NCBI GenBank assembly: GCA_020632075.1
Contig: JACKGH010000001.1
Location: 665,778 to 729,777, forward strand
From: Candidatus Nomurabacteria bacterium
GTDB lineage: Bacteria; Patescibacteriota; Minisyncoccia; Phycocordibacterales; UBA918
Reading direction: 5' to 3'
Length of the DNA stretch: 64,000 nt
Positions 36,084-52,078 of this stretch are shown piece after piece. The translations under genes were made by a program, and so were the position numbers. Below the pieces are notes generated by a model, which was not told the origin of the DNA, did no database searches, and saw only the letters and a list, made by a program, of their open reading frames with translations. Each line of letters starts with the position of its first letter. Within the stretch, counting starts at the first letter, position 1.

Positions 36084-36704
36084 CTACTGTCCAAAATTCT
36101 TTCTAGGGAACTTCACTGACGTAGCAATGTTTATACTTTTATACAAATTTGTTTTCCCGTATTTGTATCTTTGGAAAATTGTATTTGCATAAAAATCTGC
36201 CAACTGTATAAGCCTAATTTGTTTCGAATCATTATAGCTAAGATGTTGCAATTTGAACGGATACTGCTCTTTCTCTATTCTAAGTCTAAGGTAGTTTTGT
36301 AAATTATGCTGTGTTGTAACCTTAACTGTTCTGTCATCAAAAAATATGCAAATATCTTCGGTATTACCATTGAAAATCTCCTCAAACAAAAAACCACACA
36401 TGTAGTTAAATAATGTGTTTTTGTCTTCAAAAAGACCTCTTTTCCATATCTGTTCCTTGTCTAACACCAGATAGTGAACTTTATGGTCGTTTGTTTTAGT
36501 GAGCGTGTTTAGGAACACTTGCCTCTCTGGGAAAGACAACTTTGATGCCTTTATTTCTTCTAAAGAATTATTTTTCAGATATTCCTTTAGGAAATTTTTT
36601 ATCCTATTTTTTCCAGTCACCTCAACGGCTGAAATAACAAAGTATCTGTTTTTACTTTGGGGACCCAGATCACCAGATTCATCTACATAGAATGTTCTCA
36701 CCAC
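36084..36704 (-). CDS. DUF3800-domain protein in low-GC context
   Basis: N-terminal FYVDESGDLG and C-terminal IQLADFYAN signatures of DUF3800; the gene and flanks are markedly AT-rich compared with their neighbours. Confidence 0.75.
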   Translation of the reverse strand: MVRTFYVDESGDLGPQSKNRYFVISAVEVTGKNRIKNFLKEYLKNNSLEEIKASKLSFPERQVFLNTLTKTNDHKVHYLVLDKEQIWKRGLFEDKNTLFNYMCGFLFEEIFNGNTEDICIFFDDRTVKVTTQHNLQNYLRLRIEKEQYPFKLQHLSYNDSKQIRLIQLADFYANTIFQRYKYGKTNLYKSINIATSVKFPRKNFGQ

Positions 36705-45505: not shown

Positions 45506-46975
45506 TCAGAAACGTTCCACGAAGTCTGCCACTGCTGACCGCTCACTACCCTGCAAGATAACGTGCGCACCAAGCGGACTCGGCATGAAACGATTCGCCC
45601 ACACGGACAGCCCATTGTCTGTTTCGGTCAGGTACTTCGCATCGATCTGCTTCACATTCCCGAGGACGACTATCTTAGACCCAAAGCCGACCCGCGAGAT
45701 CAGAGTCCGCATGTCTTTTGGGGTTAGATTCTGGCCCTCATCAAGAATGATATACCGCTTGAACAGGGTCCGACCACGCATGAACGAGGTCGACTTCAGA
45801 TCAATGCGGCTACGCAACATCTCCATACTAGCACCTTTCATACCGGTTGCATGGAGTCCATCCGCACACTTATCATCCTCCCATTCATGCGTGATAACTT
45901 CTAAGTTATCGGTTACCGCACCCATCCATGGTTGCATCTTCTCTGCTTCAGTACCAGGCAAGAAGCCAATATCCTCTCCAGACGGCACAGTGGCACGGGT
46001 CGCGATCATCCGAGTGTAGATCCGCTCATTAAAGATCTGTTCAAGACCGCAGACTAGAGCAATGAGGGTCTTGCCCGAACCGGCAATCCCGTTGAGAAAC
46101 ACCACTGGCAAATGCGGATCAAGACACAAGTGCATGGCGTATGCCTGATGCATGTTTCTTGGGTGAATACCGAAGGCTTCGCGACGCTGACGTTGCCAAT
46201 CCGGGATCTGCAACACTGTCGCTCTCGTACCACTCGTTTCCAGCACACGATAGAGTTTCCCTGATTCGAACTCCTCTCCAATGACCAGTCCCTGATTGGG
46301 ATACCAGCTTCCTACCAGTTCATGCTCAAACGTAGTGACAGATCCATAACGGCTATCCTGTTGCGACTCCGCAAACTGTACTTCTGACCAAAAACCTTCT
46401 GGCAAGTGTTGCATACCAGTGGTCGCAAGGACGTCGATATCCTCAAGCGATACTGCTTCATTTCGATAGTCCTGTACCTCGATACCTAACATACGCGCTT
46501 TGTTACGCAAACTTATATCCTTGGTGACCAAGATGACAGGTCGAGGACCGCCACCACGCCCATTTCCTCGCCGATCTTTCTCAGCCAATGCGTAGCGCAA
46601 GATCGAGTTGTCATATTTGTCATCATCAAAGACAAACGGTAACTCGATCTTTCTTGCCTCTTCCGTCTGTAGGTACAATTGTCCAGTTGCGCCATACTTC
46701 TCGGTCAACTCACACAGACCATCAAGTTGGATCTGAGCCACTAGACCTTCATGATTGGCAGCACCGTTGTAGTTTTGCATCAGTCCATCAAGATTTCGAA
46801 TGGCTTGCCGCGTATTACGATTCTTTTCGAGCACGCCACTCTTGTGATTATCAAGCTCTTCCGACACCTTGAGCGGAATCGCCACAATGTGGCGACCAAA
46901 CTTGAGTAGTGCATCTGGGTCATGCATGAGCACGTTGGTGTCGAGGATATACTGCTTCTGTTGTTTGTGTCCCAT
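45506..46975 (-). CDS. PhoH-family ATPase with N-terminal PIN domain (YlaK-like)
   Basis: PIN acidic residues (ILDTNVLMHD); Walker A GIAGSGKT and the PhoH core. Confidence 0.85.
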   Translation of the reverse strand: MGHKQQKQYILDTNVLMHDPDALLKFGRHIVAIPLKVSEELDNHKSGVLEKNRNTRQAIRNLDGLMQNYNGAANHEGLVAQIQLDGLCELTEKYGATGQLYLQTEEARKIELPFVFDDDKYDNSILRYALAEKDRRGNGRGGGPRPVILVTKDISLRNKARMLGIEVQDYRNEAVSLEDIDVLATTGMQHLPEGFWSEVQFAESQQDSRYGSVTTFEHELVGSWYPNQGLVIGEEFESGKLYRVLETSGTRATVLQIPDWQRQRREAFGIHPRNMHQAYAMHLCLDPHLPVVFLNGIAGSGKTLIALVCGLEQIFNERIYTRMIATRATVPSGEDIGFLPGTEAEKMQPWMGAVTDNLEVITHEWEDDKCADGLHATGMKGASMEMLRSRIDLKSTSFMRGRTLFKRYIILDEGQNLTPKDMRTLISRVGFGSKIVVLGNVKQIDAKYLTETDNGLSVWANRFMPSPLGAHVILQGSERSAVADFVERF

Positions 46976-47104
46976 AGGACCTCCTGTAATAGAACATTCG
47001 TACTGCCCACAGCATACTGACCAATGGGCGTTCCGCAACTACACAAACCGTCAGATGTTTGCTGTTATACTTTACATATTTATTCATCTAATCATTCATT
47101 ATCC

Positions 47105-47558: not shown

Positions 47559-47588
47559 CAAAAAAACCGGAGCGTTTGCTCCGGTTTA
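47559..47588. terminator. Bidirectional terminator shared by the PNPOx-like gene and the Ubl operon
   Basis: aaaaaaaccggagc-gtttg-ctccggttt. Confidence 0.75.
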
Positions 47589-47611: not shown

Positions 47612-47830
47612 TCAGGAACCCTGCGGACGTTCCGTCAGGGTAAGAACCGCGTCGGGCGGAACGTGTGCATCCAGCGACACCTCCTTACCGTTCATGGTGA
47701 CCTTCATGTTGTTCGGGTCACGACCAGCCGCTTGCAGCACCGCTGCTACCGATGCGCCGGAGTCTTCGACCGACACGACTTTCTCACTACTCTCCCCGGC
47801 ACGGGGATGAACTTTCACGATCACTTTCAC
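47612..47830 (-). CDS. Ubiquitin-like beta-grasp protein (ThiS/MoaD-like) ending Gly-Ser
   Basis: 72 aa, MKVIVKV...VTMNGKEV...PDAVLTLTERPQGS; last gene of a 3-gene operon with an E1-like gene. Confidence 0.55.
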   Translation of the reverse strand: MKVIVKVHPRAGESSEKVVSVEDSGASVAAVLQAAGRDPNNMKVTMNGKEVSLDAHVPPDAVLTLTERPQGS

Positions 47831-47848
47831 TACACTTCACCTCTCTGG

Positions 47849-48511
47849 TTACAGTTTAACCACCTCGAACGTGTCAGACTTCAGCGGCCGACACGTGACT
47901 TTTTGGCCAGTTTGCCAATACCGCGCTACCGTCGATGCAACACACGCTGCAACGTGCAGTGACGCAAAGATCACACCATGGAATCCGCAAGTCTGCGGTG
48001 CCGCCTTATCTTCGGGCGGTAATGAACGCTCGTACTCCTCACGGTCTCTTCCATTTTTAGGATTCACCGCGTAGACCTCAGCATACGCAGCCGAGGTACG
48101 CGTGTCAACGAGCAGATCGTGTGAGAACCTCTGCTGCAGCAGTTGCTTCCAGATCAACTTGCGTGCAGGGATCGTATCCACCGAAGCAATGACGGTGACC
48201 CCTTTCGGCAGTGGACCACCTGAGTACATCTCAGGCACCACTTTGATCTCGACGCCTGCCAACTCCCTGACTCGCTCTCGCAACACTTCCACCTTTAGGC
48301 GGGCAGTGTCGGCACCGGTGTAGAGTGACATCGATCCATTGTGTGACGCGACCGTGTCACCGTCGATGACCGTGATGTCGCTGACACCCATTTTCGCGAG
48401 GGCCAAAGTGACCCAACTACCTATCGCACCAGCCCCGATCACAACCACCGGCCGTGCCAGGCGTGGATCGAACAGGTTCATTTGATGAGCGAAGTTTTCT
48501 GCCATTGTCAC
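47849..48511 (-). CDS. Minimal E1-like (ThiF/MoeB-family) adenylyltransferase
   Basis: VVVIGAGAIGSWVTLALAKMGVSDITVIDGDTV Rossmann nucleotide-binding motif; 220 aa, no CxxC zinc module or rhodanese domain. Confidence 0.7.
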   Translation of the reverse strand: MTMAENFAHQMNLFDPRLARPVVVIGAGAIGSWVTLALAKMGVSDITVIDGDTVASHNGSMSLYTGADTARLKVEVLRERVRELAGVEIKVVPEMYSGGPLPKGVTVIASVDTIPARKLIWKQLLQQRFSHDLLVDTRTSAAYAEVYAVNPKNGRDREEYERSLPPEDKAAPQTCGFHGVIFASLHVAACVASTVARYWQTGQKVTCRPLKSDTFEVVKL

Positions 48512-49953
48512 TCCTTTATTTCCAGCAATCCAAGTTGCACATCGCCTTCGTATCCTACAAAGACCCCCTCAAGATCATGAACCTGCTTCGAATCATCTCC
48601 GAACACAGGCCATTCTTCGATCTTCGCGTCAGCCAATGATTCATCATAGCCATTCTGCAGCCAATCAAGGATAAGGCAAATGAGATCTTCGTCTTGCCCA
48701 GAGGTCAGCAACTCATCAACTTCATTTGTGACGTTGCCGAAGCAGACCGAACCGGAGGCACCGATGTGCGGATGCGGAACGAGCGTCGGATGCGGCAAAC
48801 ACTTGGACCAAACGTGCACCTTCTGATACCGACTGATCCGAATGATGAACCGACCGAGATATCGCTCTACCCCTGCAGCATCCTGCACGACCACGTCTTT
48901 GGTATGCACATGCAAATACGTACTATCGGGGTGCTCAAGGTAGTCGATCAAAGGGTGTGTGCGGAGCACTTCCCAACCCTCCAATGCTGACTGATCAACA
49001 ACCTCAAAAATGCCTTTGCTTTTCTGCGCCAGCATCAACCGACGTTCGAGCAACAGTTCAGCAATAATGCGTCGATAATTGGCGATCCGCTCATCGACCC
49101 GCTTGACCTTGGCGTCCACATTATCGTGCAACCTTTGGATCATGCTCACGAGGTACTGTCCGTACTCTTCTGCGGTCTCAAGGCGTTTAGTCAGCAACTC
49201 GACCTTGTCTCGTGCGGTAAAAACTCGCCAGGCATATCCAAGCGCTACGGCAAACAAATCGGTGCCATTAGCTGCAAGCAGATGCAGAGAGTCATCATCG
49301 ACCGGCACGAATAGATACAACGTTGTACCGACCACCTGACCGATCCGCTGATTAAAGCGGTCGTGCACAACCAATCCATATCCGTGAGCAACTCCCGGTA
49401 CAGCCACTTCGTGTCCTGACGGTTGTAGGCGCACATCATCAACGTGGGTTGCAACGAATTCCTGATTTTCACCAGGTGGCACTGCGCCCAAAACGATATG
49501 CACGGTGTCAGAATCATTGTACGGATACTGCACTGAACCATGCGAACACAGATGTAGGTGCACGTGCTTACCCGAAACAAATGCCAATTTCAGTAGCGTA
49601 TCTTGCATCGCTTCCAAGATCGGTTCGTACGTCATTCGCTTGAATTCTGATCCGTGATCGATAGCTGTCTCGACATGTGGTGCATCGCCCTGGTCAAAGA
49701 AATACGCCTCGCGATCTGTCGAGATCAATCTATTATCGACACGTTCACGCACCAATAACCGAGCCACCACTTCTGGACTACATTCGAGCAGTCCATTCAG
49801 AGTTTCACTATCGAGGTCAAGCGGATATCCCTTGATCGAGAATCCATTGATGTACACGATCGTAAGTGGTACCGGCAATCCTTCAAATGCCGACCCCACC
49901 CAGAACTGTTCTGGGATAAAGATCTTCTTCATATTTTGATTCCTCACTATCAA
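48508..49953 (-). CDS. Multidomain protein with C-terminal E2-like (UBC-like) domain and unassigned N-terminal domain
   Basis: C-terminal HPHIGASGSVCFGNV resembles the E2 HPN-x3-G-x-C active-site motif, with a downstream ICLILDWL helix; 4-nt overlap with the E1-like gene. Confidence 0.55.
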   Translation of the reverse strand: MIVRNQNMKKIFIPEQFWVGSAFEGLPVPLTIVYINGFSIKGYPLDLDSETLNGLLECSPEVVARLLVRERVDNRLISTDREAYFFDQGDAPHVETAIDHGSEFKRMTYEPILEAMQDTLLKLAFVSGKHVHLHLCSHGSVQYPYNDSDTVHIVLGAVPPGENQEFVATHVDDVRLQPSGHEVAVPGVAHGYGLVVHDRFNQRIGQVVGTTLYLFVPVDDDSLHLLAANGTDLFAVALGYAWRVFTARDKVELLTKRLETAEEYGQYLVSMIQRLHDNVDAKVKRVDERIANYRRIIAELLLERRLMLAQKSKGIFEVVDQSALEGWEVLRTHPLIDYLEHPDSTYLHVHTKDVVVQDAAGVERYLGRFIIRISRYQKVHVWSKCLPHPTLVPHPHIGASGSVCFGNVTNEVDELLTSGQDEDLICLILDWLQNGYDESLADAKIEEWPVFGDDSKQVHDLEGVFVGYEGDVQLGLLEIKE

Positions 49954-50064
49954 AGTTCAAAGGTTCAAATTCGAGTGTGAAAATACTTCATAAAACGCAC
50001 TATGTCAATATCAAATAAAACATTTGACAGCGTCTATTTCAAAATAGTCTGTTATCCTTACTGC

Positions 50065-51192
50065 ATGATACGAACTGAAATTGTCATTGCCTTTTTAACC
50101 CTGATCGTTATTGGCGCATCGCTGATGCTCTTTTTTCACTTGCATCCACAAAACACACCAATACCTGAACCAGCTCTTGCACCGAGCAGCACTCCCGCAG
50201 TAGCAGCAAGTACAACTGGGCTGATTCTGCCTGCGGTGAGCCTGGAAGAAAAAATTGGCCAACTCATAATGATCGGTCATTGGGCTGATCAACCACTCGC
50301 AAGCACAACGGACCTGATCGCCAACTACCACCTTGGCAGTGTGATCATCATGAGCGCACCGGAAGTAGCAAGTACTACTCGGGAGTGGGTCGCAACCTGG
50401 CAAGCAGTATCTTCGAGCACACTGTTGATTGGAGTCGATCAAGAAGGCGGCCCAGTCACTAGGTACAAAGATGGCTTCATACAAACAAGCCAGAGGGAGA
50501 TCAAGGATACCGCCACTGCATACGAGGTTGGAACACTGCGTGGAGCAGAATTATCTGATCTTGGTATCAATCTAAACTTTGCACCCGTACTCGATAGCGC
50601 AACTCACCCTGAGTCATTTATGTACTCTCGGGTCTTCCCGAACAGTTCCCTTAGCGCAGAATTAGCAGCGGCAATGATCGAAGGCATGAAAGAAAATGGT
50701 GTTGCTGCAGCTCCAAAACACTTTCCTGGCCACCCAGATACAAGCGATGACTCACATACTACGTTACCCACCGCAGACATTACCCTGGAAGAACTACCCG
50801 AACACACTGTTATCTTTACTGAACTCTTTGCCGCACACACACCGCAAGCGCTCATGACCGCGCACGTCCTCTTCCCAAAAATAGACGGATACCCTGCGAC
50901 ACTCTCACCATTTTTCCTTAGCACCTACCTGCGCGACGAACTTGGCTACCAGGGGGTCGTGATCACTGATGATCTAAGTATGGATGCGATCGACAACACT
51001 TGGACCGTCGAAGCAGCAGCCGTGCAGGCGATCAAGGCCGGCGCCGACATAGTGCTCTTAGCTGCAGAGCCTCAGTCAGTGTCATCGGTAACTCAAGTCC
51101 TTCTCGATGCTGTCGGCGCCGGCACCCTTCCCCAAACTCGCATCGACGAAAGCTATGACCGAGTCCTAAAGCTCAAACAAACTATAGACTGA
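50065..51192 (+). CDS. nagZ: Beta-N-acetylhexosaminidase, glycoside hydrolase family 3
   Basis: GH3 N-domain motifs (KHFPGHP...D) and a TM/signal N-terminus. Confidence 0.8.
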   Translation: MIRTEIVIAFLTLIVIGASLMLFFHLHPQNTPIPEPALAPSSTPAVAASTTGLILPAVSLEEKIGQLIMIGHWADQPLASTTDLIANYHLGSVIIMSAPEVASTTREWVATWQAVSSSTLLIGVDQEGGPVTRYKDGFIQTSQREIKDTATAYEVGTLRGAELSDLGINLNFAPVLDSATHPESFMYSRVFPNSSLSAELAAAMIEGMKENGVAAAPKHFPGHPDTSDDSHTTLPTADITLEELPEHTVIFTELFAAHTPQALMTAHVLFPKIDGYPATLSPFFLSTYLRDELGYQGVVITDDLSMDAIDNTWTVEAAAVQAIKAGADIVLLAAEPQSVSSVTQVLLDAVGAGTLPQTRIDESYDRVLKLKQTID

Positions 51193-52078
51193 CCTCGATC
51201 TCATTTTTGATCGATCGCAAGTATGCATACTGATCAAAGAAATCAACCTTCTTTGAAGCGATGGCACCTGAGACAGGTTTATTCAAGATGTAAAACAAGA
51301 ACGATTCAGCAAAATCCTCTTCTGGATTTTGCGCGGCATAGTCAGACACAAATGTACTCTTGTGAATCTGGTAGTAATCATACCCCGATCCGAACGGATC
51401 ATCGGAGTGAGCATAGCGCTCTGCCCTGTCTAGATCTGCACTTGACCAAAATGTTTTAGCGAAGACTGCTAAGTATGCATTAGCCTTTGGACAGCCATGA
51501 ATCTCAAAGTAATCGACACAGTGAGCCGAGGCGGGCTTAGCGACACCAGGAATCTCTTCGTATGCCACGAGATGTGCCAGCTCATGAATAATAAGTTCTG
51601 CATTGGCCTCCGAAGTTGGATCATCGAGCATATCCTCATGCACCGCATATGACCAGTACTCATGACGTGGCGGGATCGTCTCTACAAACGCATCAAAAGT
51701 TGCTTCGTCACCCCCAAACACAATCGCTCGTTTAATGAATGAGTCGTACGCACTCGGAAACAACGCAAACATCTGTGTGAAGTACGCACGATGAGCCGCA
51801 TTTGGAATAGATGTCACAACACTTTGATCAGGCAATTCGTAAGCCGCCACCACGTCGACAGTGGCAGAAAGGCCCGACAACTGCTGGGGCGCTTCAACTT
51901 CAACTTGTTGACGCGAAGCTAACTCCGCCTGCAAAACAGCGATCTGCTGCTGCAGCTGCTCAATAAGCTGCAAGAGTAAGGCTCGGTACGCAGCATCTGT
52001 GGTCTGTGCATGGGTAGCAGTTGGCACGAATACACAACCGAGCAATGCGACTGCAATTAGAAATGTTCGTTTTTTCAC
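51182..52078 (-). CDS. Secreted zinc-metalloprotease-like protein (HExxH)
   Basis: Signal peptide; HELAHL motif; otherwise unassigned. Confidence 0.55.
   Translation of the reverse strand: MKKRTFLIAVALLGCVFVPTATHAQTTDAAYRALLLQLIEQLQQQIAVLQAELASRQQVEVEAPQQLSGLSATVDVVAAYELPDQSVVTSIPNAAHRAYFTQMFALFPSAYDSFIKRAIVFGGDEATFDAFVETIPPRHEYWSYAVHEDMLDDPTSEANAELIIHELAHLVAYEEIPGVAKPASAHCVDYFEIHGCPKANAYLAVFAKTFWSSADLDRAERYAHSDDPFGSGYDYYQIHKSTFVSDYAAQNPEEDFAESFLFYILNKPVSGAIASKKVDFFDQYAYLRSIKNEIEVSL

Follow-up and report, generated by a model that had tools for sequence, protein, structure and literature searches.

Gene organization of the cassette

A 64,000-nucleotide stretch of the genome of a Candidatus Nomurabacteria bacterium (assembly GCA_020632075.1, contig JACKGH010000001.1, positions 665,778 to 729,777), hereafter called the window, carries at positions 47,612 to 49,953 a cassette of three genes whose products resemble the enzymes and the modifier of ubiquitin-like protein conjugation. 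Three consecutive, co-directional open reading frames (ORFs) are found on the minus strand, encoding a large protein with a domain similar to ubiquitin-conjugating (UBC, E2) enzymes, a ubiquitin-activating enzyme (E1)-like adenylyltransferase and a small ubiquitin-like protein (Ubl), in this order (Table 1). The cassette had been proposed as a candidate conjugation system from the DNA letters and their translations only (hereafter the sequence-only reading). All three ORFs were confirmed in the ORF list at the positions claimed there, and the motifs it had quoted (HPHIGASGSVCFGNV, ICLILDWL, GAGAIGS, DGDTV and TERPQGS-stop) were all found in the sequence.

For the large gene, the ATG downstream of the first possible TTG is most likely the true start. 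Direct reading of the DNA showed that the protein would then begin with MKKIFIP and be preceded by the ribosome-binding site (RBS) GAGGA, and a public protein from a Candidatus Kaiserbacteria metagenome-assembled genome (P0001) is 474 amino acids (aa) long and 100% identical to the large protein. The E1 gene most likely starts at its ATG as well. Its RBS, AAGGAG, sits within the end of the large gene, and the TGA stop of the large gene lies 3 nt upstream of this ATG; the two genes are therefore tightly coupled. The GTG of the Ubl gene is located 18 nt downstream of the E1 stop with GAGAGGTGA just before it, and the 3' end of this ORF reads CAG GGT TCC TGA (Gln-Gly-Ser-stop).

Table 1. Features of the three-gene cassette and its borders (positions in the window)
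Feature	Position	Strand	Description
Large gene, E2-like fusion protein	48508..49953	-	481-aa ORF from TTG 49953; likelier start ATG 49932 (474 aa)
N-terminal alpha/beta domain	49216..49674	-	Residues 94-246; HVHLHL...DSD cluster; conserved PPG, G-x-G, Q206, Y213
Single long helix	49018..49173	-	Residues 261-312 (52 residues), AlphaFold2 secondary structure
UBC/E2-like domain	48589..48993	-	Residues 321-455: helix, beta-meander, HPH loop, Cys, two helices, W-L-x-x-G-Y-D...K-I-E-E-W-P tail
Catalytic-type motif H394-P-H396-x7-C404-F-G406-N407	48733..48774	-	H394, H396, C404 and G406 invariant in 92 homologs
Minimal E1-like adenylyltransferase	47849..48511	-	220-aa ORF from GTG; likely start ATG 48505 (218 aa)
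E1 Cys175 codon	47987..47989	-	Candidate thioester-forming Cys; crossover-loop end, before next strand
SAMP2/ThiS-like beta-grasp Ubl	47612..47830	-	72-aa ORF from GTG 47830, ends TERPQGS-stop
C-terminal Gly71-Ser72 codons	47615..47620	-	Invariant; 13/13 distinct members end GS
Operon-closing hairpin	47564..47587	both	10-bp stem, 6 GC pairs, T-runs either side; scores as intrinsic terminator on both strands
Promoter-like site upstream of large gene	49980..50008	-	TTGACA-17-TATTTT; 10/12 matches in consensus scan

The E2-like domain of the large protein

An alignment of 92 sequences was used to analyse conservation towards the C-terminus of this protein. H394, H396, C404, G406 and Y436 are strictly invariant, and H388, P395, N407, W431, L432, G435, W448 and P449, among others, are nearly so; all of these strictly and near-invariant positions are located within the last ~135 residues. 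The pattern HPH-x7-C-x-G-N could be found in 137 of 147 representatives, with the same spacing as in the eukaryotic HPN-x7-C active site. When a profile of 34 domain sequences was compared with all PDB sequences, 55 of the 57 matches were E2 enzymes. The best of these E2 matches, UBE2L3 (UbcH7; E=0.0026), could be aligned from helix 1 to the active site, with the His-Pro-Asn of UbcH7 placed on H394-P-H396 and its Cys86 on C404.

Structure prediction by AlphaFold2 from the 92-sequence alignment gave a model with a predicted local distance difference test (pLDDT) score of 85.3 and a predicted template modelling (pTM) score of 0.69, while a model from a three-sequence alignment (pLDDT 48) was discarded. 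The predicted chain is built from a beta/alpha unit (residues 8-63), a disordered linker, the alpha/beta domain, the long helix and a module at residues 321-434 consisting of a helix, a beta-meander, a loop and two helices. The features of a UBC fold, i.e. the helix, the four-strand meander, the HPN-type loop, the spacing to the Cys and the crossover helix, are all present. None of the curated E2 models (Pfam UQ_con, Prok-E2_A to E) scored above threshold, and the window protein gave no match to them at E<=1. Searched individually against Pfam, the 34 domain sequences gave two matches to UQ_con (best E 0.028), one to E2-ntca and one to Prok-E2_B, all sub-threshold, these being the only families meaningfully touched by single members. 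Foldseek searches against PDB and BFVD returned nothing significant. The scores are moderate but the independent lines agree, and by sequence and predicted structure the last module of the large protein is assigned to the UBC fold. A UBC-like fold in this domain had been named in the sequence-only reading as one of the points on which the proposal would stand or fall, and it held.

The E1-like adenylyltransferase

The product of the middle gene matches Pfam ThiF (PF00899) with 68.8 bits against a cut-off of 28.1 (5e-19), and by this similarity it is assigned, as had been suggested, to the ThiF/MoeB/E1 adenylyltransferase superfamily. About 50 relatives were collected. In an alignment of 36 sequences, G26, G28, D50, N58, K73, D112, R117, D136 and R138 are invariant. 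No CxxC zinc motifs, rhodanese module or extra domains could be detected in the protein by sequence inspection and Pfam, in agreement with the earlier description of an enzyme lacking both zinc ribbon and rhodanese. The matches to NCBIfam and PADLOC models (ThiF, a Cap2-type model and PRTRC_ThiF) are partial, fall in the Rossmann region and score far under the family cut-offs, the PADLOC 'E1-E2' matches covering only ~40-80 residues of that region. Sequence matches in PDB (TcdA, MccB, PaaA, ThiF and an unnamed ThiF-type protein) are likewise limited to the N-terminal half.

Cys175 is present in 36/36 aligned sequences, including those of the phage-type clade described below. Its position matches those of C184 in ThiF and C250 in UBA5. 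The UBA5 Cys is located in the crossover loop (PMC11601596). The crossover segment of the cassette enzyme (D-x-E-x-Y-E) also contains Y160, conserved in at least 90% of the aligned sequences; a crossover-loop Tyr serves as a catalytic residue in the E1s of Bub systems (PMC11601596).

The ubiquitin-like protein and its Gly-Ser end

The small protein matches Pfam SAMP2 below threshold (22.9 bits against a cut-off of 27, 1.2e-4). Individual family members gave weak, sub-threshold Pfam matches, the recurring ones being the beta-grasp families SAMP2, ThiS, TGS, RnfH and DUF348. A profile of seven members, compared with PDB, retrieved Pyrococcus furiosus SAMP2 (5lda_B, E=7e-6; 1rws, E=1.1e-5), which supports the earlier assignment of this protein as a SAMP2/ThiS-like beta-grasp Ubl.

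All ten complete cassette-linked Ubls and three further homologs end in Gly-Ser, a count for which the last homolog search may favour shared C-terminal words. The C-terminal consensus is (T/S)-E-R-(P/A)-x-G-S. A C-terminal Gly-Gly or a single exposed Gly was found in none of the 13 members, which all read Gly-Ser-stop. The stop codon is TAA, TAG or TGA depending on the locus, and the Ser codon is TCC, TCG, TCT or TCA. Since both vary across the loci, the Gly-Ser terminus is judged from the sequences to be genuine and under selection. Recoding of a stop codon was considered as its origin and ruled out, as all three stop codons are in use. The terminal Ser had earlier been taken for a precursor extension that needs removal; a Ser does follow the Gly, but it is invariant and not variable, and trimming is one of several possible readings. 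Neither a Ubl with a Gly-Ser terminus nor an E1/E2 system from the candidate phyla radiation (CPR) was found described in a literature search, whose coverage was incomplete, so that an earlier description is possible; nothing relevant was found on the PDB entries 9EGB-D.

The N-terminal half of the large protein

The sequence-only reading had noted a His-x-His...Ser...Asp cluster in the N-terminal half and had suggested that this half may supply a peptidase or target-recognition function. The cluster is present in the window protein (HVHLHLCSHGS...DSD) but is not conserved in the family: the share of the 92 homologs that keep the residue is 13% for H132, 67% for H134 and 61% for H152, and different residues occur at the Ser and Asp positions. 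Among the polar residues, strong conservation is seen only for Q206 (98%), Y213 (92%) and D198 (79%), and no conserved nucleophile was found in this half in the 92 homologs, so the peptidase proposal had to be given up. No Pfam or NCBIfam family was matched, and the likeness to amidotransferase/ThuA folds is weak, again with no conserved nucleophile. Because the cluster is not conserved, the N-terminal half could rather be a scaffold, oligomerisation or recognition module. The long helix that follows is probably, judged from the model, a coiled coil or dimerisation stalk between the domains; on sequence inspection the phage-type relatives have a similar helical region ahead of their E2-like domain.

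Conservation and distribution of the three-gene arrangement

The three genes were found in identical order at 11 loci including the window. The locus contexts were gathered via E1 homologs, pattern scans and distant family members at ~20% identity. Since the same order recurs at ten further loci with 20-58% identity, the arrangement is far beyond chance. Each locus carries the large protein, a ThiF protein of 215-233 aa and a small protein of 72-100 aa. The flanking genes are unlike at each of the 11 loci, encoding for example GroEL, tRNA synthetases, pyruvate phosphate dikinase, threonine synthase and thiamine pyrophosphate enzymes, and no fourth conserved gene could be identified among them.

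The 11 loci also give no sign of the partners expected of related systems. The absence of a separate JAB or deubiquitinating peptidase gene, already noted from the window, was upheld at every level: the three cassette proteins have no match to JAB models in Pfam, a scan of all window ORFs of >=90 aa for the JAMM motif HxHx7SxxD found none, and no JAB or DUF6527 gene was called at the 11 loci. Genes for ThiG, ThiH, MoaE, CysM, NcsA or rhodanese do not occur beside the cassette at any of these loci; the check for sulfur-carrier partners covered the called genes of the loci L001-L005 and L015-L017 and the neighbours in the window. MoaE, ThiG or cysteine synthase next to the homologs would have spoken for sulfur transfer according to the sequence-only reading, which therefore stands on this point also.

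A word-index homology search with the large protein returned only two relatives, both within the same three-gene arrangement, suggesting an orphan protein. This was ruled out by an exhaustive HMMER search of 1.84 billion cluster representatives (50% identity clusters), which gave 1348 representatives at E<=1e-3, of which 271 reached E<=1e-10 and 150 reached E<=1e-30; most are full-length proteins with 430-550 aa. Two family members are assigned to Kaiserbacteria. The large protein matches no Pfam, NCBIfam, PADLOC or PHROGs family. A pattern scan with a 14-sequence alignment of the large protein found one genome locus and two metagenome loci. No match was obtained in the viral contigs of IMG/VR, either with this alignment or with a phage-type protein (from L010, see below), nor by tblastn of the large protein against GenBank phages and plasmids or of a phage-type E2-like protein against phages. 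A 202-aa protein (P0150) that appeared as a stand-alone E2-like match lies in a context resembling a degraded copy.

The large gene is broken in one metagenomic population. On one contig (L003:4187-6017) it is interrupted by an IS200/IS605-type Y1 transposase, and on a sibling contig (L004:4772-6017) a frameshift splits it into pieces of 121 and 304 aa, while the ThiF and Gly-Ser Ubl genes are intact on both. Because of this insertion sequence (IS) interruption or frameshift, the large gene is judged dispensable in that population.

Relatives on mobile elements

Distant relatives of the E1 (33-42% identity) were found on contigs carrying DUF5906/Toprim primase-helicase genes and many small ORFs, and also on one archaeal contig. 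Four sister modules (L007:3906-6669, L008:3881-6696, L010:3536-6176 and L006:1016-3501) come from phage- or plasmid-like contigs and one Methanomethylicaceae contig. In them, a gene for a JAB peptidase (EVSGLG...HSHx7SxxD; weak Prok-JAB match) and an E2-like gene precede the E1, a minimal ThiF sharing the invariant Cys with the cassette E1. The E2-like protein is 355-402 aa long, with a helical region and the motif H-P-[HY]-x7-C-W-G-N, and can be aligned to the E2-like part of the large protein in the window; two of these proteins carry Cys-rich C-terminal tails. No small Ubl gene was found adjacent to the sister modules.

A comparable gene block was observed in the cultured Flavobacterium phage FpV4 (NC_041872.1; L018:625-4636, gp53-gp50) and in its relatives. 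It consists of gp53, with an N-terminal Ubl-like region ending VKSGG followed by a long acidic tail, gp52 (421 aa, with HSH...FCIGS), gp51, a JAB protein (HSHNTMAVFFSGTD), and gp50, a ThiF protein annotated as 'thiamine biosynthesis protein'. The block looks like a phage Ubl/JAB/E1 module that has been mis-annotated as thiamine biosynthesis. Because relatives occur on phage- and plasmid-like contigs and in Flavobacterium phages, the cassette enzymes are placed by sequence in a broader clade, members of which are spread by viruses and plasmids as well.

Genomic surroundings

The neighbours of the cassette encode, according to Pfam, a DUF305 protein, a photolyase, a PIN-PhoH protein, a PNPOx-like protein, a GH3 glycosidase, a histidine kinase and a weakly metallopeptidase-like protein. 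The GC content at the locus is unremarkable. The closing hairpin had been claimed as a bidirectional terminator, which its scores on both strands bear out. The promoter-like site upstream of the large gene is only suggestive as its promoter; such sites are no more numerous in the region than expected from shuffled sequence.

The metallopeptidase-like protein (298 aa; 51182-52078, minus strand) is encoded two genes upstream of the cassette and has a signal peptide, a HELAH (HExxH) zincin motif and a weak Peptidase_Mx match (E 3.6e-4). Because it looks secreted and is not kept beside other cassettes, it probably does not supply the missing processing of the Ubl. The PIN-PhoH fusion (PIN_4 + PhoH, 510 aa; 45506-47038, minus strand) is convergent with the PNPOx-like gene beside the cassette; such fusions are ordinary in small genomes and sometimes tied to stress or phage responses. 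A 206-aa ORF at 36084-36704 (minus strand), starting with VVRTFYVDESGDLGPQSKNRYFVISAVEV, presumably resembles DUF3800-type proteins.

Comparison with known systems

The cassette was compared with known systems as defined in PMC11601596, PMC1779556 and PMC11354881. By its sequence features it behaves like the bacterial Ubl conjugation operons and is placed outside Bil, Bub, PRTRC, the operon types 6a-6e and the Cap2/Cap3 proteins of the cyclic-oligonucleotide-based antiphage signalling system (CBASS). The mismatch with the Bil, Bub, 6E and Cap2 families, already noted in the sequence-only reading, was borne out, the defining features of each being absent from the cassette.

Bil systems have separate Ubl, E2 and E1 genes and cysteine chemistry, and their E2, which is independent of a ligase (E3), is thought to choose targets itself (PMC11601596, PMC11354881). 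The cassette is similar in its separate genes and, by sequence, in its cysteine chemistry. However, Bil systems include the JAB peptidase BilC, a multi-domain E1 that combines an inactive and an active adenylation domain with a Cys domain, and an E2 marked by a CEHH motif (PMC11601596, PMC11354881). The cassette has no JAB, its E1 is a single 220-aa ThiF domain, its Ubl is a single beta-grasp domain ending in Gly-Ser, and its E2 motif HPH-x7-C-x-G-N stands in a domain fused to an N-terminal region of ~320 aa.

Bub (6E/DUF6527) systems are compact sets of Ubl, E2 and E1 with a minimal, homodimer-type E1 domain, and Type II is without JAB (PMC11601596), a combination shared by the cassette. They form oxyesters through the E1 Tyr mentioned above and an E2 Ser, have no catalytic Cys in E1 or E2, and always include the serine protease BubE/DUF6527 (PMC11601596). 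In the cassette, by contrast, both catalytic positions are invariant Cys residues (E2 Cys404 in 92/92, E1 Cys175 in 36/36), and DUF6527 (PF20137) was matched by none of the three proteins and was not among the scanned neighbours. Bub fuses E2 to E1 or Ubl to E2, whereas the cassette E2 is fused to a different domain. Every one of the operon types 6a-6e described by Iyer et al. (2006) has a JAB and/or fused E1 and E2, and their E2-like domains are without the classical His or without Cys (PMC1779556). At the window locus there is no CD-NTase, effector, JAB or E2-E1 fusion as in CBASS, and the substrate would be a dedicated Ubl and not the C-terminus of a cyclase. For PRTRC, the E1 reaches 37 bits with NCBIfam TIGR03736 (PRTRC_ThiF) against a cut-off of 144.75.

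Compared with the canonical UBC E2s of eukaryotes and archaea (e.g. UBE2L3, UBE2F), the cassette domain has His in place of the Asn of HPN, an invariant G-N beyond the Cys and a W-L-x-x-G-Y-D...E-W-P tail instead of the C-terminal helices; it is preceded by a 320-aa N-terminal region and misses the UQ_con threshold. The archaeal SAMP2/UbaA and bacterial TtuB-type systems also pair a small ThiS/SAMP2-like modifier with a MoeB/ThiF-type E1, and SAMP2 is the closest solved relative of the cassette tag, but these systems work without an E2, their modifiers end in Gly-Gly, and they are tied to sulfur transfer and JAMM peptidases. The eukaryotic UFM1 precursor has a Ser directly after the activating Gly (VG-SC). 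The UFM1-UBA5-UFC1 system resembles the cassette in its minimal homodimeric E1 with a crossover-loop Cys (PMC11601596); it differs in that UFC1 has no HPN-type motif, UfSP proteases process UFM1 and the UFM1 extension is not invariant. No sequence relationship between the cassette and this system was detected.

Proposed mechanism and alternative explanations

Together, these results make it probable that the cassette is a self-contained three-gene system that conjugates its Ubl to proteins via a cysteine relay. This reading is based on the protein folds and families, on the invariant residues, on the strictly kept synteny and on the lack of a peptidase or sulfur-transfer partner, while the chemical steps, the identity of the E1 nucleophile and the function of the N-terminal domain are modelled by analogy with known systems. 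The minimal ThiF-type E1, which is presumably homodimeric as are ThiF, MoeB and UBA5, would bind the 72-aa Ubl, adenylate its C-terminus with ATP and load it onto Cys175, where the crossover loop ends. From there the Ubl would move to Cys404 of the UBC-like domain, whose HPH-x7-C-x-G-N loop could correspond to the eukaryotic HPN-x7-C active site, and would finally be attached to an amine of the target. The large protein would act as an E3-independent E2, with its N-terminal domain and long helix serving oligomerisation and the recognition of targets or partners and not peptidase activity. The cassette itself encodes no E3 or deconjugase.

As for its role, the relatives on mobile elements, the patchy occurrence in varying contexts and the disruption by an IS tip the balance slightly toward an accessory system for conflict or antiviral defence, though this falls a little short of an even chance; a regulatory or housekeeping modification is a possible role too, held with lower confidence.

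Several points count against these proposals. Canonical E1s need a C-terminal Gly and the encoded end is Gly-Ser in every member, with no peptidase for this end in the cassette or in the JAMM scan of the window. Y160 recalls the Tyr of Bub, so that the E1 nucleophile is not settled by sequence and a role for this Tyr is possible. A metal site built from H388, H394, H396 and C404 is conceivable. With regard to an antiviral role, PADLOC recognises no defence system in the window and no defence-island signature is seen at the locus, no cassette-type homolog was found in GenBank phages, plasmids or IMG/VR, and the neighbourhood is of the housekeeping kind (photolyase, PIN-PhoH, PNPOx-like, GH3), as the sequence-only reading had described it.

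The terminal Ser may be removed by an unlinked trimming enzyme, its carboxylate may be activated directly, or its hydroxyl may take part in the chemistry. The last two routes form the alternative that survives best, although it is unlikely: the E1 would adenylate the Ser carboxylate in the manner of MccB and the Ser would be kept, or the Gly-Ser bond would undergo an N-to-O acyl shift that makes the Ser a built-in leaving group or handle. In both cases the product would differ from the usual Gly-Lys isopeptide. MccB itself adenylates a C-terminal Asn. A residue that is trimmed would normally vary, and here Gly-Ser is kept in 13/13 members with synonymous Ser codons and three different stop codons; a peptidase gene is present in 0/11 loci; and MccB and PaaA, whose substrates have C-termini other than Gly, are among the best PDB matches of the E1, albeit for the Rossmann part only. 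That no Gly-Ser Ubl was found described in the literature also fits an unusual chemistry. On the other side, the E1 Cys and the HP-x7-C E2 are what a standard thioester relay needs, and a housekeeping carboxypeptidase could trim the Ser. Conserved extensions of a single residue or a few residues that are trimmed also exist, as in yeast Atg8 (Gly-Arg) and UFM1 (Gly-Ser-Cys).

It is improbable that the C-terminal domain is a catalytically inactive module, either UBC/RWD-like or binding a metal through H388, H394, H396 and C404, the Ubl being attached by the E1 alone, as in E2-independent SAMPylation and urmylation, and the large protein serving as adaptor or target. Three conserved His and one Cys within 17 residues would suit a metal site, and RWD and UEV domains are known. 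The latter domains are without the Cys, however, and the spacing from His to Cys is exactly that of active E2s. Moreover, the phage-type relatives keep only H394, C404, G406 and N407, i.e. the UBC pattern; in the four examined, the position of H388 is not His in three and H396 is replaced by Tyr in two. A sulfur carrier, in which the E1 would adenylate the Ubl and the conserved Cys of the large protein would give persulfide sulfur to form a thiocarboxylate for a cofactor or for tRNA thiolation, is improbable as well: the ThiF/MoeB type of the E1, the SAMP2/ThiS likeness of the small protein and the dual function of SAMPs and Urm1 (PMC9574740, PMC2948915) speak for it, but none of the sulfur-transfer genes named above lies beside the cassette at the 11 loci, a UBC-like protein is the partner throughout, and the Ubl ends in Gly-Ser, not Gly-Gly.

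Implications

Bacterial Ubl conjugation (CBASS Cap2, Bil, Bub) has recently become a field of its own, in which each new operon family gave a new chemistry or antiviral mechanism. A cysteine-relay conjugation cassette as proposed here would be a fourth architecture in this field, a minimal one that consists of three genes and lacks any peptidase for deconjugation or processing, with an E2 that keeps the canonical His-Pro-x/Cys spacing while being fused to a putative recognition module. Its invariant Gly-Ser raises the question of whether a non-glycine end is activated by the E1 or a maturation step is hidden. The family is sizeable (150 clusters at E<=1e-30, more than 1300 at E<=1e-3), yet it has no model in Pfam, NCBIfam, PHROGs or PADLOC.

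More tentatively, and with considerable doubt, the cassette may represent a large, so far undescribed family of E1-E2-Ubl systems that lack a peptidase and occur in uncultivated bacteria, CPR members such as Kaiserbacteria among them, in which the Ubl is activated or processed through the invariant Gly-Ser and the E2 has the most eukaryote-like HP-x7-Cys geometry found so far in a bacterial operon. If true, this would mean a new C-terminal chemistry for ubiquitin-like proteins and would bear on the origin of UBC enzymes. With a host genome of ~1 Mb, each gene set that is retained is informative on the biology of CPR bacteria.

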